In this document: positions 18,366-36,730 of the stretch, one piece after another
How positions within the stretch are numbered: the first letter of the stretch is position 1
How the letters are laid out: every line of letters starts with the position of its first letter
Assembly (NCBI GenBank): GCA_963169815.1
Contig: CAUJDC010000025.1
Span: forward strand, 1 to 52,027
From: Patescibacteria group bacterium
GTDB lineage: Bacteria > Patescibacteriota > Gracilibacteria > UBA1369
Length of the DNA: 52,027 nucleotides
Reading direction: 5' to 3'
The notes under the pieces: generated by a model
Told to the model about the DNA's origin: nothing
Databases searched by the model: none
The model's input: the letters and a program-made list of their open reading frames with translations, nothing else
Made by a program: the position numbers and the translations under genes

Positions 18366-18392
18366 ACAAAAAAGCCCTATTTACATAAGGCT
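18362..18392 (-). terminator. Orphan minus-strand rho-independent terminator; inferred ancestral terminator of tRNA-Asn
   Basis: The stem AGCCCTA (18373-18379) / TAAGGCT (18386-18392) has one mismatch. On the minus strand it is followed by TTTTTTGTTTATA. No minus-strand gene lies upstream of it for 14 kb. Confidence 0.55.
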
Positions 18393-18406
18393 CTCAATTG
18401 TTACAA

Positions 18407-18415
18407 AATGGCTCC
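18407..18415. repeat. Left copy of putative att core AATGGCTCC
   Basis: It is identical to 32564-32572, which is the complement of the tRNA-Asn 3' end GGAGCCA plus TT. Confidence 0.5.
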
Positions 18416-18530
18416 GCATTCTGGAAGCTGTCAGCACATGCTTTGCCAGAGGGGAGGCGGGGTATTTTCCGTATCACGTAGTGGTGGAGCATATGAATGA
18501 GTGCATGGTGAAGACGGGGTAAGATCGTTT

Positions 18531-18564
18531 CTTATTCTACTTTGGAGGTTTAAAGTAGAATAAG
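18531..18564 (+). other. Perfect 13-bp hairpin in the island left arm
   Basis: CTTATTCTACTTT (18531-18543) pairs with AAAGTAGAATAAG (18552-18564), with loop GGAGGTTT. It lies 9 nt after the TAA (18520-18522) that would close the recombinase frame in the circular form. Confidence 0.5.
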
Positions 18565-18673
18565 AGAATTTATATTCTAGTTTCGGTGAAGTTTGCTTGC
18601 TATTTAACGGCCAAAGAGTAAATTATCTTTGTGTATGTTTGTATAACTTTGTTATTACGCTAATTTTTAGCCT

Positions 18674-18904
18674 ATGTTTGAGGATAAACCAGACATTCTC
18701 TCCATTGGAGAGGTCGCAGAAATACTGAATGTTTCGACCATGACACTTCGACGTTGGGATAAAGAGGGTATTTTGAAAGCGTTTCGGCCAAGTATGACCA
18801 AACAGCGACGGTATCATAAAAAAGATGTCATCGATTTTTTGAAATCTACGCCTGAAACACATAAGAAGCCCAAATCTCGAAGAAAATTAACACCTTTTCC
18901 ATGA
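18674..18904 (+). CDS. Excisionase/MerR-type HTH protein (76 aa)
   Basis: LSIGEVAEILNVSTMTLRRWDKEGIL resembles the excisionase-family HTH. Its stop overlaps the hsdM start (ATGA). Confidence 0.7.
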   Translation: MFEDKPDILSIGEVAEILNVSTMTLRRWDKEGILKAFRPSMTKQRRYHKKDVIDFLKSTPETHKKPKSRRKLTPFP

Positions 18905-20943
18905 ACAATTTTCAAAATAAAGTTAGCTTAATCTGGAATATCGCTGAGTTTTTGCGCGGTAGCTGGAAGCAACATGAATATCAGGATGTTGTGCTTCCTT
19001 TAACGGTTCTCAAGCGCCTTGATTCGGTTTTGGAGAAAACCAAAGAGAAAGTTTTGAAGGAATACAATCAGCATCAGGGGAAAATCAACGTGTCTCCGAT
19101 TTTGAAGGACATTACGGGTGTTGGGTTTTACAACACATCGGTTTATGACTTTCACAAACTATTGGATGATCAGAAAGATATTTCCAAAAACCTACGCAAC
19201 TACATCAGTGGTTTTTCCGAAAATGTTCAACAAATTATTGAGAAATTTGATTTTGAAAAGCATCTTGCACGTCTTGAAGGAGGTAATCTCCTGTACCTCA
19301 TTGTTAAGGAGTTAAATAAAGTTGATCTTCATCCTGATGCGGTTAGTAATACGGAGATGGGGTACATCTTTGAAGAGTTGATTCGTAGATTCTCTGAGCA
19401 ATCCAATGAGACAGCTGGTGAGCACTACACCCCGCGCGAGGTGATTCAAATGATGGTGGAGGTGATGTTTACGATGGATAAACATTTACTCAAAAAGGAG
19501 CACACAATTAAGACGATTTACGACCCTTGTTGCGGTACGGGCGGAATGCTTGCGGTTTCAAAGAAATTCATTGCTGAGCATATCAATTCCAAAGCGGATA
19601 TTTACCTGTATGGACAAGAGCTGAATCCCGTGACGTACGCCATGTGCAAGGCGGACATGCTGATTAAAGGTGAGGATGCTGACAAAATTAAAGGTGGTGA
19701 AAAAGATCACTCCAAGGCAAGTACGCTTTCTAACGACCAATTTATCGACCAACATTTTGACTACTGTATAACGAATCCGCCGTTTGGTGTGGATTGGAGA
19801 AAAGATCAAGAAGCTGTCGAGCGTGAGGCGCAGCGTGGGCACGCGGGCAGGTTTGGTGCGGGAACTCCGCGAAGTTCTGATGGGCAGTTGCTCTTTTTGC
19901 AGCACATGATTTCCAAAATGCAGAATCCTTTGAGTGGTGGAGGACGTATTGCCATCGTTTTCAACGGGTCACCTCTTTTTACAGGTGATGCTGGGAGTGG
20001 TGAAAGTGAAATCCGTCGCTGGATTTTGGAGAATGACTGGCTTGAAGCGATTGTTGCTCTGACTGATCAGCTTTTTTATAACACGGGCATTTCAACCTAC
20101 GTCTGGTTTTTAACTAACCGTAAGAAGCATGAGCGGAAAGGAAAAGTGCAGCTCATTGATGCCCGCACATTTTTCAAGAAAATGAGAAAGAGTCTCGGGA
20201 ATAAGCGCAATGAAATAACCGATGAAGATCGTGGGCACATTGTGAAGCTTTATGAGGAGTTTAAAAACTCAAAGTATAGCAAGATTTTCAAAACGACGGA
20301 TTTTGCATTCAGGCAGATTACGGTTGAACGACCGTTAAGGCTTAATTTTCACGTAAGTGCGGAAAGAATTGAGCGGGTGAAAGAACAGTCTACATTTAAG
20401 GGTTTAGCTGAAAGTAAAAAGAAAGGTGACGCTGGGATTTTGGAGATTGAGGAGGGGAAAGCGTTTCAAAAAGAGGTCTTATCTGTGCTGGAAAAGCTGG
20501 ATAGCAAGCTGTATCGAAACCGTGAGGCATTTCTTGAGGCTTTTGACGAAGCTTTCAAAAAGTCTGGCATAAAACTGCCTGTTTCACTTAAAAAAGGAAT
20601 TTTGGAAGGTTTGAGCGAACGTGACGAGGAAGCCGATATTTGCTTGGATAGTAAAGGCAATCCCGAACCAGATAGTGAACTGCGCGATACCGAAAATGTG
20701 CCTTATGAACAGGATATTTATGAGTATTTTGCAAAAGAAGTGAAGCCTTACGCGCCTGACGCGTGGATTGATGAAAAGAAAGTGGACGATAAGGACGGTA
20801 AAGTCGGACGTGTTGGCTATGAAATTCCCGTTACTCGTTATTTTTACGAATATCAACCGCCTCGCGCGCTTGAAGAGATTGAGGCGGATATTGAAAAGGT
20901 TGAGAATGAACTTCTTGGCTTGTTTAAGGAATTAACCAAATAA
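18901..20943 (+). CDS. hsdM: Type I restriction-modification methyltransferase subunit HsdM
   Basis: HsdM N-terminal domain (IWNIAEFLRGSWKQHEYQDVVLPL), SAM motif DPCCGTGGML and catalytic NPPFG. Confidence 0.95.
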   Translation: MNNFQNKVSLIWNIAEFLRGSWKQHEYQDVVLPLTVLKRLDSVLEKTKEKVLKEYNQHQGKINVSPILKDITGVGFYNTSVYDFHKLLDDQKDISKNLRNYISGFSENVQQIIEKFDFEKHLARLEGGNLLYLIVKELNKVDLHPDAVSNTEMGYIFEELIRRFSEQSNETAGEHYTPREVIQMMVEVMFTMDKHLLKKEHTIKTIYDPCCGTGGMLAVSKKFIAEHINSKADIYLYGQELNPVTYAMCKADMLIKGEDADKIKGGEKDHSKASTLSNDQFIDQHFDYCITNPPFGVDWRKDQEAVEREAQRGHAGRFGAGTPRSSDGQLLFLQHMISKMQNPLSGGGRIAIVFNGSPLFTGDAGSGESEIRRWILENDWLEAIVALTDQLFYNTGISTYVWFLTNRKKHERKGKVQLIDARTFFKKMRKSLGNKRNEITDEDRGHIVKLYEEFKNSKYSKIFKTTDFAFRQITVERPLRLNFHVSAERIERVKEQSTFKGLAESKKKGDAGILEIEEGKAFQKEVLSVLEKLDSKLYRNREAFLEAFDEAFKKSGIKLPVSLKKGILEGLSERDEEADICLDSKGNPEPDSELRDTENVPYEQDIYEYFAKEVKPYAPDAWIDEKKVDDKDGKVGRVGYEIPVTRYFYEYQPPRALEEIEADIEKVENELLGLFKELTK

Positions 20944-20946
20944 CCC

Positions 20947-21129
20947 ATGAAAATTCGCAAACTTTCGCCATCGGCCTACGTCCTGCGCAAGCAATGGGAA
21001 CTTGAGGACAAAAAAGTCTTTGCCAAATTCAGGAAAGACGAAGCGGTTTTGCAGGTGATTAATGCTTTGGCGGAGATGATTGTGCGAATGCAGGTGCGAC
21101 AACCAGAGGAACCAAAAGTGCAATTTTAG
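20947..21129 (+). CDS. Small hypothetical protein (60 aa) between hsdM and hsdS
   Basis: It fills the hsdM-hsdS gap on the same strand. No motif was recognised. Confidence 0.35.
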   Translation: MKIRKLSPSAYVLRKQWELEDKKVFAKFRKDEAVLQVINALAEMIVRMQVRQPEEPKVQF

Positions 21130-21163
21130 CCATAATGTTACGGAATTCAGTAAGAATAAAATA

Positions 21164-22459
21164 ATGCAGATTCAACTCAAGAAACATCACGGGCGGTACA
21201 GCAAATACAAGCAAACGGGAATACCGTGGCTTGGTGAGGTGCCTGAAGAATGGGAAGTGAAGAAGTTAAATCTAGCTTATGCTTTTGAAAAGGGTCAAAA
21301 TGCGCAAGTATTTACGGCTGAATATATCTCTGACGAAAATAACATTGGAGAGTACCCCGTTTATAGCGGTCAAACTGAAAATGATGGAGTAATGGGGATG
21401 ATAAATGCTTATATTTATGACAGGGAGTTTTCAATTTTTGTCACAACAGTTGGAGGAAAAGTAATGACGCCAATGTTTATTAAGGGAAAGTTTAGTCTAT
21501 CTCAAAATTGCGCCTTATTTAGGGCGAGAAATAAGAAGAAGATCTGTGATAAATATTTTTTTTATCAGCTATTTCCTCTTTTTGAAATGGAAAAAGCAAA
21601 TATTCCATCTCATATGCAACCTTCTTTAAGAATTTCTGATTTGAATAGATATATTGTTGCCTTTCCACATATTGTTGAGCAAAAAAATATTGCTCAGTAC
21701 CTCGATTTAAAAATTGATTTGGTTGATCAACTTATTGCAAGTAAGCAAAATCAAATTAATCTTTTGCAGAACAAACGCACCAGTTTGATATATCGAGCTG
21801 TAACTCTTGGGATTGATGAGCGTGTGGGAATGAAAGAAAGTGGTGTGGAATGGATTGGGAAAATTCCAATGCACTGGCAATTAATGCCTTTGTTTACGAT
21901 CGCCAAAGAACAGCAGAATAAGAATATTGGCAATAAGATCGACAATGTCCTTTCATTGAGTTATGGCAAAATAATCCGTCGAGATGTAGAAAACAATTTC
22001 GGATTATTACCTGAATCGTTTGAAACATATCAAATAGTTGATTCTGGAAACATCATTCTTCGTTTAACAGATCTTCAAAATGACAAAAGAAGTCTGAGGG
22101 TTGGCCTAGTAAAGGAGCGTGGAATTATAACTTCAGCCTATGTGTGTTTGTCAGTAAAAAAACAAATGCTGTCTGATTATTTATATGTTTTACTACATTC
22201 GTATGATTTGGAAAAAGTGTTTTATAATTTGGGTGCTGGAGTTCGTCAAACAATGAAATTTTCTGATCTAAAGCGGTTGCCAATTCCTTTACCTCCGATC
22301 CAAGAGCAGCAAAGGATAGTTGATTTCCTCAATTCTGAAACTCGGAAAATTGATAGGGCTGTAGCTATTATCAAGCAGTCAATTTCTTTCCTTGAGGAAT
22401 ATAAGACTTCTCTTATTTCCCATGTGGTAACTGGAAAAATTAAAGTAACTAACTCTTAA
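21164..22459 (+). CDS. hsdS: Type I R-M specificity subunit HsdS
   Basis: It has two target-recognition domains, each followed by a conserved helical spacer (EQKNIAQYLD... and EQQRIVDFLN...). ATG 21164 is preferred over the track start at 21080. Confidence 0.9.
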   Translation: MQIQLKKHHGRYSKYKQTGIPWLGEVPEEWEVKKLNLAYAFEKGQNAQVFTAEYISDENNIGEYPVYSGQTENDGVMGMINAYIYDREFSIFVTTVGGKVMTPMFIKGKFSLSQNCALFRARNKKKICDKYFFYQLFPLFEMEKANIPSHMQPSLRISDLNRYIVAFPHIVEQKNIAQYLDLKIDLVDQLIASKQNQINLLQNKRTSLIYRAVTLGIDERVGMKESGVEWIGKIPMHWQLMPLFTIAKEQQNKNIGNKIDNVLSLSYGKIIRRDVENNFGLLPESFETYQIVDSGNIILRLTDLQNDKRSLRVGLVKERGIITSAYVCLSVKKQMLSDYLYVLLHSYDLEKVFYNLGAGVRQTMKFSDLKRLPIPLPPIQEQQRIVDFLNSETRKIDRAVAIIKQSISFLEEYKTSLISHVVTGKIKVTNS

Positions 22460-22462
22460 GCC

Positions 22463-23287
22463 ATGAAATTTCAATATTTCACATACTTTTTGAACCCGAT
22501 ATCTCAGCAGTCTCTGTTCCCTGACCAGAGGGATAAAAATGATATTTTAATGGGAATCATGGAGAAAAAGATGGAATATAAACATATGAAATCTGACATG
22601 GTTTATGTGTTTCACAGAAAGGAGTGGAAATATTTACACGGAAAGCTTGGTAAAAAATCATCTATCAAAAGAACTCTTCCTTCTGATCATGATTTTGTTG
22701 AGCATGTCGATATAAATTACCCATATTGCAATTTATTATTGAATTTGGACAATGATGCGGAAACTGGCCAAAAAATTGCTTTTGAGTATAACTCTGTTGT
22801 TTTTCAGTCGCCAGAGGCTCAAATTAAAGCACTAGAAAAACAATTAAATACTCTTTTGTTTTCAAATGGTTATGCCATCTCAATTCATCCAGTAGTTGAT
22901 CAAAAAGAATTTTGGGCATTGGCAAAGAAATATGATGGAAAAATTGAAAAACTGATTTTTACTTATGCTGTTCCTAATCTTTTTAATCTTGAGAACGAGC
23001 TTTCAGAGGATTTGAAGCAGTCTGGTCAAAAGTATGGGATTACAAATGCTGCTATTGAATTTGAGAATAAAGCAGGTCAATTAATAATCCCTGAAAATGA
23101 CCCTTTCATGAAACAAAGTGCGGAATATACTGGAAAAGGTGGTGGCGAATATAGGCTTAAGGTTAAAGGGATGAAATCAGAGATTAGTAGCAATAAGAAC
23201 GTAAAAACTAAGTCCATTGAAGATATTGACTTGAGTACTGATGATAAGGAAACCTTTCTAGAGGCAGTTAATACAATTTTTAAGTAA
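22463..23287 (+). CDS. Uncharacterised 274-aa soluble protein embedded in the Type I R-M operon
   Basis: It starts 4 nt after hsdS on the same strand. I could not identify any catalytic motif. Confidence 0.7.
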   Translation: MKFQYFTYFLNPISQQSLFPDQRDKNDILMGIMEKKMEYKHMKSDMVYVFHRKEWKYLHGKLGKKSSIKRTLPSDHDFVEHVDINYPYCNLLLNLDNDAETGQKIAFEYNSVVFQSPEAQIKALEKQLNTLLFSNGYAISIHPVVDQKEFWALAKKYDGKIEKLIFTYAVPNLFNLENELSEDLKQSGQKYGITNAAIEFENKAGQLIIPENDPFMKQSAEYTGKGGGEYRLKVKGMKSEISSNKNVKTKSIEDIDLSTDDKETFLEAVNTIFK

Positions 23288-23293
23288 AAAAAC

Positions 23294-23722
23294 ATGAAAC
23301 TACTTGGAATTATTTTTTTCAACATCATACTCGGCGCGGGATTTATTCTGCTGAACCAATTAGTTGGCAACTGTTTTTTGAAGAATTTTTTAGACAACCA
23401 GATATTGCCTATCGGCTCAACAATTTTAGGGTTTAACCTTGCTGGTATTATATTTCTAATAGGGCATATAACTGAAATTGAAAGCAAGACGAATGCAGAT
23501 TTTTCGGCTTCTAAAAGAGAACTAAAACATAATATTTATTTTTTAGGATTGGTTTTTGTTGCAATCCTACTTCTCTTATTTGTAAATCCAACACCCACTC
23601 AATACAAATATGTAGATTTTGGTTTTAACGCTCTCATAATGACTTTGTTTTTCATGCAGTTTTACGCGGTATATGAAATTCTCAATGCGGTTTTTCATTT
23701 AAAAACAACTAAAAAATCTTAA
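23294..23722 (+). CDS. Uncharacterised small membrane protein (142 aa, ~4 TM helices)
   Basis: It has four hydrophobic segments and starts 7 nt after the preceding ORF. Confidence 0.65.
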   Translation: MKLLGIIFFNIILGAGFILLNQLVGNCFLKNFLDNQILPIGSTILGFNLAGIIFLIGHITEIESKTNADFSASKRELKHNIYFLGLVFVAILLLLFVNPTPTQYKYVDFGFNALIMTLFFMQFYAVYEILNAVFHLKTTKKS

Positions 23723-23734
23723 CTTTTTATAACC

Positions 23735-24820
23735 ATGCAACCATTTAAACCCCACAAATTGCCGATAAAAAATCTCGACTGGACTCGATTTATTCACCTT
23801 ATTGGTGAGTCAAATCGGGAGGTTGCACGTTTTGATGGTCTTTTGCAGAGCATGCAGAATCCTGGGGTGTTGCTTTCACCATTGACCACACAGGAAGCCG
23901 TGCTTTCATCGAAAATTGAGGGTACGCAGGTGACTTTGCAGGAAGTGTTGGAGTTTGAGGCAGATCCAACCGAACATGCAGAGAAACATGATGACATTGA
24001 GGAGGTTTTGAATTACCGAAAGGCAATGCACTATGCTGTGGAAAATCTGGATAAAGTGTCGTTTTCTGGAAGGCTGATTAAAGGCGTTCACTCAATTTTG
24101 CTTGATGGTGTGAGAGGAGAAAATAAAGATCGTGGAAATTTTAGAAGCGGACAAGTGCACATCGGGAAATCAAAGAAGATTGAAGAGGCAAGCTATGTTC
24201 CTCCTGCACCTCATGATATCGCTGATGCGTTCTCGAATCTTGAGAAGTATTGCCACGAAACCGAAAAAGACGATCTTGTTCAATTGGCCATTATTCACGC
24301 CCAGTTTGAGATTATTCACCCGTTTTGGGATGGAAATGGTCGTGTTGGACGTATCATTCTGCCACTTTTTCTTTATTTCAAGAAAGTGCTAACAAGTCCG
24401 ATGTTTTACCTAAGTGCCTATTTTGAAAAAAATAGGGATGAATATTATCAGTATTTGAAAGGGGTTTCCGAGAAAAATGATTGGGAATCATGGATTGAAT
24501 ATTTCTTACAGGCGGTTGTGACTCAGGCGAAAGAGAATGTTATCAAGGCTAAGGCGATTCATAGCCTTTATGACCAGAAAAAGAATCGAATAGTTGGTTT
24601 GACTCATTCACAGTTCGCAATCAAAACTTTAGATTTTCTTTTTTCTTATCCGATTTTTACATCCGCGCAATTTGTAAAGCTAACAGGAATTCCGCAAGGA
24701 ACTGCTCTTCGTTTATTGAGTAAGTTGAAACAAGGGGAGGTAATTACCGAGATGCGCACAAAAAAAGGACGTTCGGCTATGATTTATCTGTTTCCAAAGC
24801 TTTTGAAAATAACTGGTTAA
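23735..24820 (+). CDS. Fic family protein (Fic_N + Fic + C-terminal winged helix)
   Basis: Fic motif HPFWDGNGRVGR, N-terminal inhibitory-helix-like SSKIEG, and a C-terminal HTH-like region. Confidence 0.92.
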   Translation: MQPFKPHKLPIKNLDWTRFIHLIGESNREVARFDGLLQSMQNPGVLLSPLTTQEAVLSSKIEGTQVTLQEVLEFEADPTEHAEKHDDIEEVLNYRKAMHYAVENLDKVSFSGRLIKGVHSILLDGVRGENKDRGNFRSGQVHIGKSKKIEEASYVPPAPHDIADAFSNLEKYCHETEKDDLVQLAIIHAQFEIIHPFWDGNGRVGRIILPLFLYFKKVLTSPMFYLSAYFEKNRDEYYQYLKGVSEKNDWESWIEYFLQAVVTQAKENVIKAKAIHSLYDQKKNRIVGLTHSQFAIKTLDFLFSYPIFTSAQFVKLTGIPQGTALRLLSKLKQGEVITEMRTKKGRSAMIYLFPKLLKITG

Positions 24821-25022
24821 TTCTTAACTGTCACGAATGACACATAAAATCTTTTATCTCTCGCAATTGTAAAAACATGAGAGATAAAGTAAGTTAACTC
24901 TCACATATGAAACTTAAGTTAGTTTGTAGCTCATAAAATCGAAAATATGAGCGATAAAAAGAATTATAGCTCATCTGTTAGCTACAACGTTGTAACAATA
25001 ACTTCTAAACTTTAACGAAAAT

Positions 25023-27956
25023 ATGCCAACCAATACCCGTGAAATCGGCTTTGAAGCCTACATTGAAACCTTTCTCATCGATCAAAACGGCTATGAAAAG
25101 CGCAAGCCTGAAAACTACGATAAGGCCTTATGTGTCGATCGTGAGGTGACTTTGCGGTTTATCAAAGAGACTCAGCCGAAGGAATGGGATCTTTTGGCAG
25201 AACATCATGGTAGTTTTGCGGAAGAAAAGTTTTTTAAGCGGCTGAATGAGGAAGTTAAGGCGCGTGGACTGCTTGATGTTCTGCGTACTGGCATTAAAGA
25301 CAACGGTTCATCTTTTTCTTTGGCTTACTTCAGGCCTGTAACGAGCATTAATGAAGAAACGCGTAAACTTTATGAAGGAAATATTTTTAGCGTGATGCGT
25401 CAGGTGAAGTACAGTGCACGAAATGAAAATTCGATTGATATGGTGATTTTTTTGAATGGTTTGCCGATATTTACCATTGAACTCAAGAATCAGCTGACTG
25501 GCCAGTCTGTGACGAACGCTTTGAGGCAATACAAGACTGATCGCGATCCAAACGAGCCTTTGTTGCAATTTAAACGGGCTTTGACGCACTTTGCTGTGGA
25601 TACCGACGAAGTGTACATGACGACTAAGCTTGAAGGGCTTAAAACCTTTTTCTTGCCCTTCAACAAAGGCAATGAAATGTCCGCAGGTAATCCGCCAGCC
25701 AAGAACAAATACAAGACAGAGTACGTGTGGGAAGATATTTGGACAAAAGACACGGTGCTTGAGATAGTTAGCCGCTTTTTGTGCCTGCAAAAAGAGGAAA
25801 AGGTTGATGCAAACGGCAAAAAGAGGATTGAAGAAAAATTGATTTTCCCGCGTTATCACCAGCTTGATGCCGTGCGCAGACTTATTACGAACTCACGAGA
25901 AGTGGGGGCGGGAAAAAACTATCTCATTCAACATAGTGCAGGAAGCGGAAAGAGCAATACGATTGCGTGGGTTGCGCACCGTCTGGCTGATTTGCACGAT
26001 GAAACGGATAAAAAAGTTTTTGATTCCGTGATTATCATCACTGATCGTCGCGTGCTTGATAAACAGCTCCAGAATACGGTTGCACAATTTGAGCAAGTAC
26101 GAGGCGTGGTAAAGAAGATTGATAAGCACAGTTCTCAGCTTCGTGAAGCCTTAGAAAATGGGGAGAAAATTATTATCACCACTTTGCAGAAATTCCCCGT
26201 GATTGTGGAGGATATGGAAAAATTATCGGGGAAGAATTTTGCGGTCATCATCGATGAGGCGCATTCTTCTCAAACTGGTGAAAGTGCAAAGACACTTAAA
26301 CAGGTTTTGACTTTTGATGAACAGGAAAGAGATTACGAGGATGGTGAAGAATTTATTTTGAAAGAAATGAAATCGCGTGGCAGACAAAAGAACGTGAGCT
26401 TTTTGGCATTTACGGCAACACCAAAGCAAAAGACGCTGGAAATGTTCGGAGAAAAACAGTTTGATGGAACGTTTAGACCGTTCTCGATTTATTCGATGAA
26501 ACAGGCTATTGATGAAGGCTTTATTCTGGATGTTCTCAAGAATTACACCACTTACCAGATGTATTTTAACCTGCTCAAAAAAGTGCAGGACGATCCTGAT
26601 TATAAGAAAAAGAAGGCGCAGAGACTGATGGTGGATTTTGTTGGAAAACATGAAGTGGCGATCCAAAAGAAAATCGAAATTATTGTGACTCATTTTTGGG
26701 AAAATATTGCTCGTGAAATAGGCGGTAAAGCTAAGGCAATGATTGTAACCCGTTCACGTTTGCACGCTGTACGTTTCAAGCTGGAGATGGATGCCTATCT
26801 TGCGAAAAACAATTTACCAATGAAGTCATTGGTGGCCTTTTCTGGAACGGTTGATGATGGCGATTTGGAATACACCGAATCTCAAATGAATGGTGTTTCG
26901 GAAAATCAAACAGCGGACACTTTCAAGGAGGATGATTACAAGTTTTTGATTGTGGCGGAAAAATTCCAGACTGGCTTTGATGAGCCGCTTTTGACCGCTA
27001 TGTATGTGGATAAAAAGCTTTCTGGGGTGAATTGCGTGCAGACGCTTTCGCGCTTGAATCGTACAAGGCCTGACAAAGAGGAAACCTTTGTGCTAGATTT
27101 TGTGAATAATACGGACGACATTAAAGAGTCCTTCCAGCCTTATTACACGACAACGGTGCTTGCTGAGGCGACTGATCCAAATATCCTGCATGATTTGCAG
27201 CGCGATATTTTGAACTATAAGCTTTTTGATGAACGAGAGATTGGCGAGTTTTGCAAAATGTATTTCCGTGGAGTTTCTCCAAGTGAGCTGAATGGATTTT
27301 TGGATGTAATTAAGCCTCGTTTTCTGGAACTTGATAAAGAACAACAAACGGACTGCAGGAAGAAAATGAGCGAATATCTCAAGAAATACGCCTTTATTTC
27401 ACAGATCATTTCGTTTAGCGATAGTAGTCTTGAAAAGCTTTATGTTTTCTTACGGCTTTATCGCAGAAAATTGCCGATAACAACGGAGACATTGCCATTT
27501 GAGGTGCTTGACTCAGTCGATTTGGAATCAATCAAAATACCGCAGGTCGGGCAAACCAGTATCACGCTTGAAAATGAAGATGGTGCACTTGAACCGATTG
27601 CAGGACGTGGCCGAGGGAAAAATGAGGATGAGAATGAGGTGTTGTCGAAGATTATCAAGGAGGTTAACGAGCGCTTTGGGACGACTTTTAGTGAAGAAGA
27701 TCGAATCATATTGAACAATCTTACCAAACGCCTGCTCGACCACAATGCGCTTGCAGGAGCGGTTAAAAACAATAATTCGCAAGATGCAGTGAAGGTGAAA
27801 TTTGATGAGGTGTTTGAAAAAGAGCTCATCTCAATGTTCCGCAATAATTTTGACCTGTACCAGAAGTTAGATTCAAATGCTGACTTGAAAGACTACGTCA
27901 ACCGAAAGATGTTTGATTTTATTCAAAAGAAATTGAAGAAGGATGGCGGAAAATAG
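25023..27956 (+). CDS. hsdR: Type I restriction endonuclease subunit HsdR
   Basis: N-terminal nuclease domain (IDMVIFLNGLPIFTIELK), helicase motif I HSAGSGKS, DEAH box IIDEAHSS, and motif VI QTLSRLNR. Confidence 0.95.
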   Translation: MPTNTREIGFEAYIETFLIDQNGYEKRKPENYDKALCVDREVTLRFIKETQPKEWDLLAEHHGSFAEEKFFKRLNEEVKARGLLDVLRTGIKDNGSSFSLAYFRPVTSINEETRKLYEGNIFSVMRQVKYSARNENSIDMVIFLNGLPIFTIELKNQLTGQSVTNALRQYKTDRDPNEPLLQFKRALTHFAVDTDEVYMTTKLEGLKTFFLPFNKGNEMSAGNPPAKNKYKTEYVWEDIWTKDTVLEIVSRFLCLQKEEKVDANGKKRIEEKLIFPRYHQLDAVRRLITNSREVGAGKNYLIQHSAGSGKSNTIAWVAHRLADLHDETDKKVFDSVIIITDRRVLDKQLQNTVAQFEQVRGVVKKIDKHSSQLREALENGEKIIITTLQKFPVIVEDMEKLSGKNFAVIIDEAHSSQTGESAKTLKQVLTFDEQERDYEDGEEFILKEMKSRGRQKNVSFLAFTATPKQKTLEMFGEKQFDGTFRPFSIYSMKQAIDEGFILDVLKNYTTYQMYFNLLKKVQDDPDYKKKKAQRLMVDFVGKHEVAIQKKIEIIVTHFWENIAREIGGKAKAMIVTRSRLHAVRFKLEMDAYLAKNNLPMKSLVAFSGTVDDGDLEYTESQMNGVSENQTADTFKEDDYKFLIVAEKFQTGFDEPLLTAMYVDKKLSGVNCVQTLSRLNRTRPDKEETFVLDFVNNTDDIKESFQPYYTTTVLAEATDPNILHDLQRDILNYKLFDEREIGEFCKMYFRGVSPSELNGFLDVIKPRFLELDKEQQTDCRKKMSEYLKKYAFISQIISFSDSSLEKLYVFLRLYRRKLPITTETLPFEVLDSVDLESIKIPQVGQTSITLENEDGALEPIAGRGRGKNEDENEVLSKIIKEVNERFGTTFSEEDRIILNNLTKRLLDHNALAGAVKNNNSQDAVKVKFDEVFEKELISMFRNNFDLYQKLDSNADLKDYVNRKMFDFIQKKLKKDGGK

Positions 27957-27979
27957 TAGTTTGAATAACAAACCAAGTT

Positions 27980-29644
27980 ATGAAAATTAAGAAAATTAGA
28001 ATTGCTGGATATCGTTCTATTAAGGAAACAATCGAACTTGAACTTGGGGATGTGAATGCTCTTATTGGCGCAAACAATGTGGGAAAAACGAATATTCTTA
28101 ATGCCATTTGGTCAGTTCTTGGTAAAGACTGGGTAACAGTGAATTCTTTTGATGAAAGTGATGTCTTTAAAAATGAATTTGATCAAGATATTGATATCGA
28201 AGTTGAATTTGAAGAACCATACAAATATGAATCTTATAAGGGGGCAGAGCCTGTTGATGTCCCACAAATAAATTTTAGATATACGCGATATAAAGTTGGT
28301 GAATTTGAAGGTCAAAGGAGATTGGAGAAAAGATGCTTGAATGCTAGTGGGCAGCCAGTGCAAGTCTTGTCGAAGAAACCACAAAAAGGAGAAAAAAGGC
28401 AGTATCAACCTTTGATTTCAATACCGCAGCAGATTCAAGAATCAATTCCAGTAATTTATATTGGGGCAAATAGAGAGTTGAAATACCAATTACCTGAGTC
28501 CAAGAATTCACTACTTGGCTCCCTACTTGCTGATGTAAATAAAGATTTTCAGGATCCTGAAAATAAAATGAAAGTTACTAATAAGCAGGGAGAAGAGGTT
28601 GAGGTTTCTCGGGTGGAAAGATTTAATCAATGTATTAAAGCTGCAATTGAGGCTTTGAAAACAGAAGATTTTTTGGCTCTAGAAAAGACAATTCGTGATA
28701 ATGCATTGTTGCAGCTTGGTATTGATCCTGAGCATTCTGGTTTGAATGTTTTCTTTCAGCCATTAACCTCTTTGGATTTTTATAAGTCGCTGAATATTTT
28801 TGTTGAAGAGAATGGATTTAGCTTGAATGCTACTTCATTAGGAGGAGGGTTTCAGAACGCTTTGGTTATTGCAATTTTGAAAGCTTTTGAGGAAAGGAAA
28901 AAATCAGGTGCAGTTTTTCTCATCGAGGAACCAGAGATGTTTTTGCATCCTCAAATGCAGCGATCTTTGTATAAAACTATACGTAAAATTGGGAAAACTA
29001 ATCAGGTTATTTATACAACGCATTCTCCTCATTTCGTAACAATTCCAGAATATGATGAAATAGTTTTGGTGAGTAAAAATGAAAATGGTACAAAAAGACG
29101 AAAGAGCTCTCTTCCAAAGACAACAGAACTTGAGCAAAAGCTTAGGAAGGAGCTTGATCCAGAAAGAAGCGAGTTTTTCTTCGCTAAAAGAGTCCTTTTT
29201 GTAGAAGGAGATACCGAAAAATTGGCATTGCCTGAATACGCCATCAGAGAGGCGTTGGATTTTGACGGGGTTGGTGGAACAATTGTAGAGGTTGGAGGGA
29301 AAAGGAATCTCCAGATGATGGCTGACATTGCACTTTCTTTCGACATATCTACTGGAATTATTTTCGATACAGATTCGTCTGATTTTAGTGACAAAACAGA
29401 AGAGAAAGAATTCAATGAATTACTGGATGGATATTCTAAAAAGGGTGCAAAAGTTTGGAAATTTGAGAAAAATTATGAAGAAGAATTGAAAAAAGCTCTT
29501 ACAGACAACGTTTATCAGACTGCTTGTCAGAAGTATCCAAAAACATCAAAGGCTATAAAAGCCAGATTGATCGCGCAAGATACAACCTATTCTGTTCCAG
29601 ATTTTATTAAGCCAATTATTAAATGGCTTGCAAATAAAGAATAA
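27980..29644 (+). CDS. OLD-family ATP-dependent nuclease (ABC-type ATPase + Toprim), standalone
   Basis: N-terminus IKKIRIAGYRSI...LIGANNVGKTN (Walker A), Walker B FLIEEPEMFLHP, and THSPHF. Toprim motifs are LFVEGDTEKLALP and IIFDTDS. No partner helicase follows. Confidence 0.85.
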   Translation: MKIKKIRIAGYRSIKETIELELGDVNALIGANNVGKTNILNAIWSVLGKDWVTVNSFDESDVFKNEFDQDIDIEVEFEEPYKYESYKGAEPVDVPQINFRYTRYKVGEFEGQRRLEKRCLNASGQPVQVLSKKPQKGEKRQYQPLISIPQQIQESIPVIYIGANRELKYQLPESKNSLLGSLLADVNKDFQDPENKMKVTNKQGEEVEVSRVERFNQCIKAAIEALKTEDFLALEKTIRDNALLQLGIDPEHSGLNVFFQPLTSLDFYKSLNIFVEENGFSLNATSLGGGFQNALVIAILKAFEERKKSGAVFLIEEPEMFLHPQMQRSLYKTIRKIGKTNQVIYTTHSPHFVTIPEYDEIVLVSKNENGTKRRKSSLPKTTELEQKLRKELDPERSEFFFAKRVLFVEGDTEKLALPEYAIREALDFDGVGGTIVEVGGKRNLQMMADIALSFDISTGIIFDTDSSDFSDKTEEKEFNELLDGYSKKGAKVWKFEKNYEEELKKALTDNVYQTACQKYPKTSKAIKARLIAQDTTYSVPDFIKPIIKWLANKE

Positions 29645-29651
29645 AATTTTC

Positions 29652-29753
29652 TTGCATCCCTGTTCCGAATTAGTATAATTACCTCGTAAGATTTTGAGTC
29701 TCTAAAGACCAGTTTGTCCACGAAAACGTGGGCGAAAAACTGGCCTTTTTTTG
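29652..29753 (+). ncRNA. Candidate ~70-nt small RNA or attenuating leader (consensus-like promoter followed by a strong terminator)
   Basis: TTGCAT (29652-29657), a 16-nt spacer, then TATAAT (29674-29679). The hairpin is CCAGTTT (29709-29715) / AAACTGG (29737-29743) with an inner CCACG/CGTGG stem. It is followed by CCTTTTTTT. Confidence 0.4.
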
Positions 29754-29798
29754 TGTTCCAAAATCTTGCGAATGTTACAAATGTTATACGAATAGGCT

Positions 29799-30152
29799 AT
29801 GCTCGGAAAACCGCATACCATAAAGGCAAAGAAGAAATTTCTGGAGGCGCTGAAAAAGCGTCGAGGAATTGTGACTTTGGCGTGCAAGGAAGCGGATGTT
29901 TCGCCGATGACTTTTTATCGCTGGCAGAACGATGATTCCGAATTTTACCAGATGTCTGAGGAAATTCGGGATGTTGAGATTGGCATCATTGCCGAGGACA
30001 GGCTGGCCGAATATATCATCGTCCACAAAGACCCGAACATGATCCGCTTTTATCTGCAGTCCAGAAGCAGAAAGTACATTCAAAGACTTCAAATGCAAAC
30101 TGAAGACCCGTCCAAGGTTTTGGCCGATCTCTTGAAGCTGGATGAGTTTTGA
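29799..30152 (+). CDS. Phage-type HTH protein (phBC6A51 / terminase-small-subunit-like homeodomain)
   Basis: KKKFLEALKKRRGIVTLACKEADVSPMTFYRWQNDDSEF resembles phBC6A51-type HTH proteins. Confidence 0.6.
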   Translation: MLGKPHTIKAKKKFLEALKKRRGIVTLACKEADVSPMTFYRWQNDDSEFYQMSEEIRDVEIGIIAEDRLAEYIIVHKDPNMIRFYLQSRSRKYIQRLQMQTEDPSKVLADLLKLDEF

Positions 30153-30340
30153 CCCGTACCCGCAAAATAATGAATACACATGAAGAATCACAACCTGCTG
30201 GAAACCTCACTGAAACGCAAAAGAAAGAATTGCGCAGCCTTTTTGAGCCAAAATACGGGTATGAACTCAGCGACGAGGATTTGTTTGAAATCCACTTTAA
30301 CCTGAAGCGCTTTTTTATGGCTGTCAGCAAAGTATCTTAA
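30149..30340 (+). CDS. Small hypothetical protein (63 aa)
   Basis: Its start overlaps the preceding stop (ATGA). No motif was recognised. Confidence 0.4.
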   Translation: MTRTRKIMNTHEESQPAGNLTETQKKELRSLFEPKYGYELSDEDLFEIHFNLKRFFMAVSKVS

Positions 30341-30351
30341 CCTTCTTTCAC

Positions 30352-30591
30352 ATGAATAATACACTTTTTCACACTGCCGATTGGTACCTGTTTGTCTGGT
30401 TGTTAGCACACGGTTTCGCCGTGAAACAGATTGAAAGAAATAATCCCAGTAAATGCCAGTTTTATTTTGAGAGTTCAGCGGAGCTTGAAGGTGAAGTTCA
30501 GGCCTTTTGGAGAAATGAAACGGTAAATGTGCAGGATTTTATTCTGGCCATCAAAAAGGCAAAAGTACTGCTTCATGCCGATAGTTTTTAA
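30352..30591 (+). CDS. Small phage-like protein (DUF5659-like, 79 aa)
   Basis: The pattern YLFVWLLAHGFAVKQIE...CQFYFESSAELE resembles DUF5659 as I recall it. Confidence 0.5.
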   Translation: MNNTLFHTADWYLFVWLLAHGFAVKQIERNNPSKCQFYFESSAELEGEVQAFWRNETVNVQDFILAIKKAKVLLHADSF

Positions 30592-30738
30592 GATATCCAA
30601 ATATGGCCAGTTATTTGCGAGTTAAGAGAGGAGCAGGAGGTTGTAATCACAAGGGAATAGGAGAGTGTAGAAGGATTATGGCTTATTCACTGGATATTCG
30701 TGTCGTTTAAGGCATTGTGTTGGTAACTAAAGATATAT

Positions 30739-32595
30739 ATGCAAAGAACAGTTCTATATTGTCGCAAGTCTTCGGACAGCGATGACAGACAGGTACAATC
30801 CCTTGATGATCAGGAAACTGAGCTGAAGGATTTTGTGAAGAGGGCTAATGGATTTGCACAAAACAGCAATGAGAGGATGGAGATTGTGGAGATTATCAAA
30901 GAAAGCTGCTCGGCCAAAAACTCGGGTGAAAGGCCGCTTTTTAACCGAATGGTAGAGGACGCGCAAAGGGGAAAGTATGATGTGATTTTGATCTGGTCTC
31001 CTGATCTTATTTCGAGGAATTTGGGTGATATGGATAAGATTATCAGGCTTTTGGAAAGCCATAAGATCAAACATCTTCTAACTCAATCAAACCAAACTTA
31101 CGGCAATCGTGCTATTGAAAAGGGCATGCTGCAGTACTGTGTTGTGAATGCCAAGATGGAAAATGACCAGAAAGGTGAGAACGTGGTGCGTGGATTGAAA
31201 CGAAAAATCCGTGATGGTAACTGGATCGGCAATGCCCGACTTGGTTATCTGAATTTTGGAAATAAAAAAGGCCAGCGTTGGGTCGATAAAGACCCTGAGC
31301 GATGGGAAATTATCAAGCAATGTTGGGAAATGTTTGCGACTGGAGCCTATTCTGTCCCTCGAATCAGGGATAAAGCCGAAGAGATGGGACTTCGATCACG
31401 CCCAATGCGAAACAAGCCTGAAGGCGCTCGTGTGGGCATAAACACCTACTACGACATGTTCTGGAATGTTTTTTATCTGGGCAAAATGCTGGTTGGTAGA
31501 AAGGAAGATGTGAAGCTATTGCCAGAATTAAAGACGATGATACTCAATGGGGAAATTGAAGGTGAGATTTTTGAAGACTACGTTATTGTGAAAGGCAAAC
31601 ACCCGCCGATGATTTCAGAAGAGTTGTTTCGCCGTGTGCAGGTAATTCTCAAAGAGCGTGGCCTTGCCCATCATTGCACTAAAACACATTTTAAGGACTT
31701 TGTTTTTGCTGGATTGATTTTGTGTGGATCGTGCGGTCATGCTGTTGTGACGGAAGAAAAGACCAAATACAAGTGCACTGACTGTGGCACTTGGTTTACC
31801 TGCTCATCCGCTCGACCAACTCCTACCGATTGTAAAAAGTGCAAGAAGCGTTTGAGTAGGCAGGCGCTGGAAAACAGCTCTTACTACTGCTATGCCCACT
31901 GTTCGGGCAAGAACAAGGAAAAGAAATTTTGTCCGCAGACCTTTCACCCTAATGGAAGACCTAAACCAACTATTCCTGTAGTTGAGTTGGAAAGGCAGGT
32001 TGATGACATGCTGAACCGACTTTCGATGGATGAAGAGGTTTACGCCTATTGCATCAGCACTCTAAAAGACGAACATTTTCAGAATAAGATCGTTCAAAAT
32101 CAATCTTTGACGCTTTTGCAGAAAGATCACAAGCGAATCAAGGAAAAACTCGATAAGCTGGTGGATTTGAGGCTTGCTGGAGAGATTGATGCCGAGTATT
32201 TCGCAAATAAGAAGTCTGAGCTGGAAACGAACATCAAGGAGATCATGCAGCAACTTGAGAAGTTTAATCAGAAAAATACCGATTGGGTCGAACAGACGGA
32301 AACCTTCTTGAATATGGCTTCCAGAGCCAGTTTAGCGTTCAAGAACGGAGATAATCTGACAAAACGGGAAATCTTGAAAAGCATTAGCTCGCACATATAT
32401 TTGCAGGGCGGTAAACTCCGCTTTGAATTTCGCAAACCATTCGACATCTTACTCAAAGAACCGCCAACACAAGACTTAGACGCTGTGTCGAAAAATCAGG
32501 AGTTCGAACCAAACGGACATCAGGAAAAAGCCAAAATATCTGCTTTTGGCTCTCGTTTTTCTGAATGGCTCCCTCGACTGGGCTCGAACCAGTGA
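30739..32595 (+). CDS. Large serine recombinase (resolvase catalytic domain + recombinase domain + zinc ribbon + coiled coil)
   Basis: VLYCRKSSDSDDRQVQSLDDQ (catalytic Ser region), a Cys-rich CGSCGH...CTDCG...CKKCKK segment, and a coiled-coil tail. The last 30 nt overlap the tRNA-Asn 3' exon, and the stop is TGA. Confidence 0.92.
   Translation: MQRTVLYCRKSSDSDDRQVQSLDDQETELKDFVKRANGFAQNSNERMEIVEIIKESCSAKNSGERPLFNRMVEDAQRGKYDVILIWSPDLISRNLGDMDKIIRLLESHKIKHLLTQSNQTYGNRAIEKGMLQYCVVNAKMENDQKGENVVRGLKRKIRDGNWIGNARLGYLNFGNKKGQRWVDKDPERWEIIKQCWEMFATGAYSVPRIRDKAEEMGLRSRPMRNKPEGARVGINTYYDMFWNVFYLGKMLVGRKEDVKLLPELKTMILNGEIEGEIFEDYVIVKGKHPPMISEELFRRVQVILKERGLAHHCTKTHFKDFVFAGLILCGSCGHAVVTEEKTKYKCTDCGTWFTCSSARPTPTDCKKCKKRLSRQALENSSYYCYAHCSGKNKEKKFCPQTFHPNGRPKPTIPVVELERQVDDMLNRLSMDEEVYAYCISTLKDEHFQNKIVQNQSLTLLQKDHKRIKEKLDKLVDLRLAGEIDAEYFANKKSELETNIKEIMQQLEKFNQKNTDWVEQTETFLNMASRASLAFKNGDNLTKREILKSISSHIYLQGGKLRFEFRKPFDILLKEPPTQDLDAVSKNQEFEPNGHQEKAKISAFGSRFSEWLPRLGSNQ
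32525..32561. terminator. Bidirectional hairpin inside the recombinase 3' end, directly downstream of tRNA-Asn on the minus strand
   Basis: AGCCAAAA (32529-32536) pairs with TTTTGGCT (32544-32551). T runs follow the stem on both strands. Confidence 0.55.
32564..32572. repeat. Right copy of putative att core AATGGCTCC (overlaps the tRNA-Asn CCA end)
   Basis: It is identical to 18407-18415. Confidence 0.5.
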
Positions 32596-32862
32596 CCTAC
32601 CGGTTACACTTATTCTGATATTTCTATCAGGCGTGGACTATATCTTCACCATGACATCAAAGGGTTGGAGATGATGTGGACAGGTGCGTTGGTATCTAGT
32701 CTCTACGGCGCCCTCACGTAAGTGAGGTTCCCTCGGTATTGGCGTGCTACATGTAAATGTAGTTTAGCTTTCACCGATATCCCAACGAGTTTCAATCAAG
32801 CTTTAGCCTGAAAGCTGCGTTTATTGTCACAGCCGGTTGCTCTACCACTGAGCTACAAGGGA
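32566..32862 (-). tRNA. tRNA-Asn(GUU) interrupted by a group I intron (5' exon 32862-32829, 3' exon 32606-32566)
   Basis: The spliced 75-nt sequence is TCCCTTGTAGCTCAGTGGTAGAGCAACCGGCTGTTAACCGGTAGGTCACTGGTTCGAGCCCAGTCGAGGGAGCCA. It folds as a full cloverleaf with a 7-bp acceptor stem (U1-A72), G73, encoded CCA and loop CUGUUAA. It closely resembles E. coli tRNA-Asn as I recall it. Confidence 0.85.
32607..32828 (-). ncRNA. Group I intron (222 nt) in the anticodon loop, between U35 and U36
   Basis: P1 pairs exon GCUGU with intron GCAGC, placing a U-G wobble at the splice site. The intron ends in G. The core elements GUAGAGACUAGA and GAAGAUAUAGUCC form P7 (GACUA/UAGUC). Hairpins are CUACAU-UUAC-AUGUAG, CCUCAC-UUAC-GUGAGG and CUGAUA-GAAA-UAUCAG. 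Confidence 0.85.
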
Positions 32863-36656: not shown

Positions 36657-36730
36657 TGGGGATTGGCCAAGTGGTAAGGCTCCGCCCTCTGGAGGCGGCA
36701 CCGGGGGTTCGAATCCCTCATCCCCAGCCA
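36657..36730 (+). tRNA. tRNA-Gln(CUG)
   Basis: TGGGGATTGGCCAAGTGGTAAGGCTCCGCCCTCTGGAGGCGGCACCGGGGGTTCGAATCCCTCATCCCCAGCCA folds as a cloverleaf with anticodon loop CUCUGGA and encoded CCA. It closely parallels E. coli tRNA-Gln. Confidence 0.9.

Follow-up and report, generated by a model that had tools for sequence, protein, structure and literature searches.

Whether two tRNA halves on the minus strand of a patescibacterial contig belong to one working gene split by a group I intron, and whether such an intron is new to bacteria, was the question raised by the locus described here. The contig is CAUJDC010000025.1 of assembly GCA_963169815.1 (Patescibacteria group bacterium), and its positions 1 to 52,027 are referred to as the window. 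On the sequence evidence, the locus is very likely a working tRNA-Asn(GUU) gene in which a 222-nt intron of the Asn.4Ug kind, containing no open reading frame (ORF), separates U35 from U36, and the intron is probably active. An initial annotation of this DNA had placed a group I intron in the anticodon of tRNA-Asn(GUU), at the 35/36 junction, and this placement was supported by a full-length match to Rfam RF00028 and by covariation in 74 homologues.

The spliced tRNA and the structure of its intron

The joined exons were folded by ARAGORN into a 75-nt tRNA-Asn(gtt) cloverleaf. The acceptor stem contained 7 bp with U1-A72 and one U.G pair, followed by the discriminator G73, and the D stem (GCTC/GAGC), the anticodon stem (ACCGG/CCGGT), the T stem (ACTGG/CCAGT), the T loop TTCGAGC and an encoded CCA were all recovered. 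The two halves on the minus strand with exactly 222 nt between them, as well as the stems and loops of the spliced molecule, had been read in the same way in the initial annotation, and the coordinates and ARAGORN agreed with it in each point. When the spliced 75-mer was compared with E. coli genomes, the best match in all of them was an annotated tRNA-Asn, with 80% identity over 100% of the query. The GUU anticodon, G73 and the cloverleaf that mark a tRNA-Asn were thus all found in the spliced sequence. No intronless tRNA-Asn was detected by default ARAGORN in the 52-kb window, in which a tRNA-Gln at 36657 was the only feature returned by this program and by Rfam at its gathering threshold.

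The intervening sequence was aligned to RF00028 (Intron_gpI) over model positions 1-253 of 253 without truncation, with 46.7 bits and E=1.2e-10. The unconstrained minimum free energy (MFE) fold of the exon tail plus intron reached -63.8 kcal/mol (z = -2.71) and gave P1, P2, P3, P4, P5, P5a, P6, P6a, P8 and P9, including the hairpins with UUAC loops (P5a, P6a) and with a GAAA loop (P9) that had been noticed at the outset. The exon sequence GCUGU was paired with intron nt 11-15 (GCAGC), which set U35 opposite G11, and the intron ended in ...AAGUG with the terminal omega-G at 32607, so that both the expected U-G wobble at the splice site and the expected last nucleotide were present. The J8/7-P7 string, which had been predicted to pair as P7, was aligned to the Rfam consensus in this role. 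As for IC3-type tetraloops, GAAA was present in L9 and UAAA was found in L2. The first model of P2 (intron 16-20/35-39) was dropped, as the family alignment placed P2 at 18-23/28-33 and showed UGAAAC to be the conserved J2/3.

Formally, two splice sites 2 nt apart are possible, a point overlooked in the initial annotation. In the sequence CU-GU-gaca...aa-gu-g-UAA, two frames carry U at -1 and G at omega (slashes mark the splice sites): CUGU/...g/UAA, which gives Asn(GUU), and CU/gug...aag/UGUAA, which moves the intron 2 nt upstream and gives Thr(UGU). The latter frame was returned as tRNA-Thr(tgt) by the intron mode of ARAGORN, and it would correspond to a catalogued class, Thr.2Ug of Williams, whose member Pgr210.Thr.2Ug has a similar core. 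However, the Thr frame puts U33 opposite A13 in P1 without any U.G wobble, whereas a splice-site U.G at U35 was found in 74/74 homologues. The tRNA body, with U1-A72, G73 and a tRNA-Asn as the best E. coli match, also differed from the intronless tRNA-Thr genes in the fetched loci, of which 41/41 started with GCC or GCT (G1-C72) and carried U73 (one C73). In addition, the intron did not end in GUG in 37 of the 94 homologous split genes among the matches listed, so no Thr frame is possible in them. The tRNA-Thr(tgt) call was ruled out by the wobble in P1 together with identity elements of the tRNA, and the Asn frame was chosen because of the wobble position, the identity of the tRNA body and the homologous introns without a GUG end. 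The Thr reading is very improbable and effectively refuted; judged by these sequence features, the gene is tRNA-Asn(GUU) with its intron between positions 35 and 36.

Self-splicing is established for the classical IC3 tRNA introns, and the splicing steps proposed here follow the established group I pathway. P1 would form first by pairing of exon G31-U35 and intron G1 with intron nt 10-15 (CGCAGC), with U35 opposite G11, and an external guanosine bound at P7 would attack after U35. G222 would then replace the guanosine in the P7 site, and the 3'-OH of U35 would attack the G222/U36 bond. Ligation of CUGU to UAA would restore the anticodon loop CUGUUAA, so that the ligated exons would read ...GGCUGUUAACCGG..., and re-formation of the anticodon stem may align the exons instead of P10.

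Covariation and homologous split tRNA genes

The helices of the window intron were projected onto an alignment of 74 type A introns without ORFs (the type is defined below), with the window intron as row 1, and the pairs were counted. Standard pairs occupied 88.7% of the helix cells from P1 to P9, compared with 36-43% when the partners were slid by 1-3 columns; double-sided changes were found in 41/65 pairs, and none of the observed measures was reached by any of 500 shuffles. The +1 pair of P1 covaried (AU 41, GC 18, CG 8), as did 6/6 pairs of P2. P3 was paired in 99.8% of cells with double changes in 4/6 pairs, and P4 and P5 were 100% paired with swaps of A-U for U-A and G-C for C-G. The basal helix of P8 (92.5% paired, 5/6 pairs covarying) and P9 (90.8%, 6/7) behaved similarly. 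Lower scores were obtained for distal P5a, P6a and P8, because the alignment is gappy there.

Homologous genes were collected by a scan of one genome per species with the pattern ATAGTCC-N15-45-G/TAA-N7-GTC-N3-GGTTCGA. At least 94 split tRNA-Asn genes were obtained, since 94 of the 120 loci listed had a matching anticodon-stem strand and CTGT 206-723 nt upstream, and the joined exons formed tRNA-Asn(gtt) in 94/94 of these species-representative loci. Among the matches listed, the hosts were mostly Patescibacteria of the Candidate Phyla Radiation (CPR), such as Saccharibacteria, Parcubacteria, Peregrinibacteria and others, alongside Omnitrophota, Cyanobacteria (Phormidium, Hormoscilla, Floridaenema), Nitrospira, Planctomycetes and proteobacterial metagenome-assembled genomes (MAGs). 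Four of the split genes (L004, L010, L105, L112) were located in MAGs labelled archaeal (Pacearchaeota, Woesearchaeota, Methanosarcinales); a similar archaeal case was attributed to mis-binned bacterial scaffolds (Williams, bioRxiv 2020, doi 10.1101/2020.01.27.920355). Ranking of the homologues by global identity was skewed by intron length and was discarded as uninformative.

Two intron cores were distinguished in tRNA-Asn: the majority type B, with extra hairpins after P7, and the compact type A (GUAGAGACUAGAUACC...AAGAUAUAGUCC), to which the window intron belongs. The type A core was found in 4 of the 94 genome matches listed, versus at least 47 metagenome contigs with tRNA-Asn. The latter came from a metagenome scan for this core, in which 120 contigs were listed (L122-L241) and at least 88 split tRNAs with a 5' exon ending in CTGT were identified, including 47 Asn, 27 Asp, 12 Tyr and 2 His. 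These are all four tRNAs with GUN anticodons (the queuosine family), and they have in common C32-U33-G34-U35, which is read by the guide GCAG. Over both scans, more than 140 homologous split tRNA-Asn genes were counted among the matches listed (94 from genomes and 47 from metagenomes). A merely accidental likeness of tRNA-like halves and GC-rich hairpins to a split tRNA with an intron could be argued from the fact that nothing was reported at the Rfam gathering threshold or by default ARAGORN. With E=1.2e-10 over the full RF00028 model, these homologues and the strong covariation, such a coincidence has practically no probability and is already refuted.

The initial annotation had held that group I introns were not described for bacterial tRNA-Asn and that an insertion between positions 35 and 36 would be unusual, and neither statement survived comparison with the literature. 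When 80,413 bacterial genomes were surveyed with RF00028 and intron-tolerant ARAGORN, group I introns were recognised in 21 anticodon-loop settings of tRNA genes, versus four classical ones, and the seed alignment of that study holds Pam37.Asn.4Ug, Mba143.Tyr.4Ug, Wba81.Asp.4Ug and Pgr210.Thr.2Ug; Lys.4Ug also occurs, at the.4 site like Asn, Tyr and Asp (Williams, bioRxiv 2020, doi 10.1101/2020.01.27.920355). The definition of Asn.4Ug, an intron between loop nt 4 and 5 of tRNA-Asn with U at -1 and omega-G, describes the window locus (CUGU/g...g/UAA). The window intron therefore belongs to an already catalogued and abundant class and represents no new class of tRNA intron: tRNA-Asn hosts are documented by Asn.4Ug and by the split genes counted above, and the equal loop position is used in Asn.4Ug, Tyr.4Ug, Asp.4Ug and Lys.4Ug. 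A keyword search of the literature on tRNA-Asn group I introns returned organellar papers only, and no account of splicing experiments on a tRNA-Asn intron was found in a literature coverage that was incomplete.

Among the known introns, Pam37.Asn.4Ug shares with the window intron the tRNA-Asn(GUU) host, the insertion after the 4th loop nucleotide (35/36), U at -1, omega-G, a guide GCAG that reads CUGU, and the tail ...AUAAGUG. Type B introns, which include Pam37, Phormidium L036 (with the same 3' end as Pam37) and the majority of those in tRNA-Asn, differ from the window intron in their extra P7-P3 hairpins and in the J8/7 element GAUGAUAUAGUCC. The core is nearly identical to that of Mba143.Tyr.4Ug and Pgr210.Thr.2Ug (GAUAACGGUGAA, GG-GAA...GCG-CC, GUAGAGACUAGAUACC, AAGAUAUAGUCC, L9 GAAA), but these two reside in other host tRNAs and have GGAA or GAAA rather than UAAA in the loop of P2. 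The classical IC3 introns, namely those of cyanobacterial and plastid tRNA-Leu(UAA), tRNA-fMet, Azoarcus tRNA-Ile(CAU) and Agrobacterium tRNA-Arg(CCU), are likewise small anticodon-loop introns without ORFs, with a U.G wobble, omega-G and GNRA-capped peripheral hairpins. They differ from the window intron in their host tRNAs and loop positions (Leu.3, fMet.2, Ile2.5 and Arg.5 in the numbering of Williams) and in the sequences of J3/4-P4 and P6.

An ORF of 70-135 aa (mostly about 100) was observed in 25 of the 32 tRNA-Asn introns of at least 400 nt among the matches listed (e.g. L110:2672-3206, L007, L026, L072, L113). In 22 of the 25, the ORF lay in the loop of P1, 5' of the guide sequence, and encoded the conserved motif C(I/V)L(V/L)CANCHRE(I/V)H. 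A full-profile match to Pfam HNH was obtained below the cut-off (E=0.0018, 18.8 bits vs 21.4), and the product is likely an HNH homing endonuclease, as judged by motif and profile; such L1-encoded enzymes in tRNA-Asn introns accompany mostly the type B core. Introns with the type A core were also observed to split tRNA genes on three large viral contigs from IMG/VR (L243, L244, L245; 60, 212 and 485 kb), where ARAGORN reported Leu(UAA), Gln/other and Ile(UAU)-like tRNAs with the intron at loop positions 2-3.

The distribution of type A introns allows a tentative proposal, which we regard as possible rather than probable, that one lineage colonised all four G34-U35-N36 tRNAs (Asn, Asp, Tyr, His) by moving between non-homologous tRNA genes through guide match. 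The single guide GCAG would fit the shared C32-U33-G34-U35, and the spread might proceed by reverse splicing or by homing with an L1-encoded HNH enzyme.

Intron alleles in close relatives and the case for a relic

The window's AtpA shares a cluster (90% or more) with a protein whose name refers to Candidatus Peregrinibacteria. Two contigs with a nearly identical SSB (L246, L249) showed the gene order NrtR, DUF1905, tRNA-Asn, methyltransferase and SSB, without the island described below, while in four others (L254-L257) the same 618-aa recombinase with other cargo adjoined the same tRNA-Asn. The tRNA-Asn was split in all of these relatives, and three intron alleles were found: 222 nt in the window, 197 nt in L246/L249 and 453 nt in L254. 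The 197-nt allele has P2 as CUCUGC-GAAA-GCAGAG and a short P8, and the 453-nt allele (L254:7828-8355) is longer in L1 (by about 65 nt) and in P8 (by about 165 nt) and has no long ORF. The cores of the alleles were nearly identical, with only scattered substitutions in L254, and P2 was rebuilt with a different sequence in each. Compensatory changes were found as well: one pair of P9 is A-U in the window and G-C in L249, and at acceptor pair 5:68 the window has U-A where the relatives have C-G, a change across both exons which shows that the split gene is selected as one tRNA. Within this lineage, probably Peregrinibacteria, the intron would have passed by vertical descent, and only peripheral elements would have turned over.

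Several points weigh against a functional, splicing gene. The score of 46.7 bits is 3.3 bits under the Rfam gathering score of 50, so the RF00028 search that the initial annotation had recommended was highly significant by E-value but fell short of the curated threshold. At the gathering threshold nothing was reported at the split-tRNA locus, and the intron emerged only at an E-value threshold; standard annotation misses it because the score lies just below. The RF00028 seed is without bacterial sequences, and a working cut-off of 18-20 bits or more was used in the earlier survey (Williams, bioRxiv 2020, doi 10.1101/2020.01.27.920355). P7 was 100% paired but invariant in 74/74 homologues, and so gives no covariation support. 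In L2 the loop is UAAA instead of the GAAA tetraloop seen in most relatives, so a tertiary contact may be weaker, although UAAA also occurs in several tRNA-Asp members. No convincing P10 pairing was visible in the intron and exon sequences. Splicing itself is predicted from sequence, and a second intact tRNA-Asn could lie elsewhere in the genome, of which 52 kb were covered.

The locus might then be a relic, in which the intron no longer splices and Asn is decoded by another tRNA-Asn gene elsewhere in the genome; the L2 without a GNRA loop, the Rfam score below gathering and the restriction of the evidence to the window would fit such a state. However, the core helices were all intact by covariation and in the MFE fold, compensatory changes have occurred between close relatives both in intron helices and in the acceptor stem, and the intron was kept in all three allelic lineages. 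On the promoter side as well as the terminator side, the sequence context of the split tRNA was also conserved. A relic is therefore unlikely, and a functional tRNA-Asn(GUU) gene with an intron capable of splicing would account better for the locus.

The defence island at the tRNA 3' end and implications of the split gene

The same tRNA had been suggested as the integration target of an island, and three findings confirmed this: core repeats of 9 bp flank the island, related contigs have the site unoccupied, and the recombinase recurs there with other cargo. Exactly two copies of the 9-mer AATGGCTCC are present in the window, at the positions listed as attL and attR in the table below. In BLAST comparisons, the stretch that immediately follows the tRNA 3' end in L246/L249 matched window 18368-18415 with 94-96% identity, and homology to the island-less loci resumed at 32548-32558; in these loci the terminator and the tRNA are contiguous. 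A 14.1-kb island has thus integrated into the last 7 nt of the split tRNA-Asn gene and regenerates the tRNA 3' end. The repeat was not found in the window by searches with a 32-mer (up to 3 mismatches) or exact 12-mers, and the 9-bp core surfaced only through the island-less relatives; GC content gave no island signal in the window.

According to Pfam, the island contains an HTH_17/MerR Xis-like ORF, HsdM, HsdS, two unknown ORFs, Fic, HsdR, an OLD-family nuclease, DUF5659 and the recombinase. The cargo differs at the same att site and with the same recombinase: a type I restriction-modification system, Fic and OLD in the window (18901-29644), and Eco57I-like, XhoI, OLD and Abi_C in L254-L257 (L254:1-4909). 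Regeneration of the tRNA 3' end, short core repeats, a recombinase and an Xis-like HTH ORF at opposite ends, and variable defence cargo are features that this island shares with known tRNA-targeting recombinase islands. Unlike the usual tRNA islands, this one has a large serine recombinase instead of a tyrosine integrase, and the recombinase ORF crosses attR into the tRNA. Beyond the attR core this ORF continues for another 23-32 nt, antisense to the tRNA, and its stop at 32593-32595 lies inside the tRNA. Because the ORF crosses attR, the last 8-10 residues of the recombinase are encoded by host DNA when the island is integrated and would differ after excision.

Table 1. Coordinates of the split tRNA-Asn gene, the elements of its intron and the adjoining island in the window
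Feature	Position	Strand	Evidence
tRNA-Asn 5' exon, 34 nt, tRNA nt 1-35, ending C32 U33 G34 U35	32862-32829	-	strand read and scripted cut; ARAGORN on joined exons
Group I intron, 222 nt, no ORF; intron position n = window coordinate 32829-n	32828-32607	-	RF00028, covariation, MFE fold
tRNA-Asn 3' exon, 41 nt, U36 onward, G73, encoded CCA	32606-32566	-	ARAGORN; E. coli match
P1, exon G31-U35 and intron G1 with intron nt 10-15 (internal guide sequence)	32814..32833	-	U35.G11 splice-site wobble
P2 hairpin, intron 18-23/28-33, UAAA loop	32796..32811	-	family alignment; MFE fold
P3 5' strand, intron 42-47; partner 32687-32692 (intron 137-142)	32782..32787	-	covariation
P4-P5-P5a-P6-P6a domain, intron 52-122, UUAC loops on P5a and P6a	32707..32777	-	covariation; MFE fold
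P7 5' strand, G126 and G128-A132, A127 bulged, within GUAGAGACUAGAUACC	32697..32703	-	Rfam consensus alignment
P8, intron 143-182, ~25 nt longer than in nearest island-less relatives	32647..32686	-	covariation; comparison with L246/L249
J8/7 and P7 3' strand (AAGAUAUAGUCC)	32635..32646	-	Rfam alignment; family alignment
P9 hairpin, GAAA tetraloop; 3' tail ends in omega-G at 32607	32614..32631	-	covariation
Integrated defence island, ~14.1 kb	18416..32563		Pfam; absent from L246/L249
attL core AATGGCTCC, after displaced original tRNA terminator (18368-18406)	18407..18415	+	comparison with L246/L249
attR core AATGGCTCC (reverse complement GGAGCCAUU = last 7 nt of tRNA + 2 nt)	32564..32572	+	9-mer occurrence; homology resumption
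Large serine recombinase, 618 aa	30739..32595	+	Pfam Resolvase and Recombinase domains

Since the exons are joined within the U33-G34-U35 element recognised by tRNA-guanine transglycosylase, any queuosine modification would have to follow splicing. The three alleles of 197, 222 and 453 nt, with and without the island, make the locus a clean natural series in which peripheral elements turn over while the ribozyme core stays fixed. A metagenome-completion paper has noted the difficulty of detecting tRNAs with group I introns, and the gene described here is missed both by default tRNA finders and at the Rfam gathering threshold, so that the genome would appear to be without tRNA-Asn. Apparent loss of tRNA-Asn is a recurring artefact of annotation and completeness estimates in CPR genomes.

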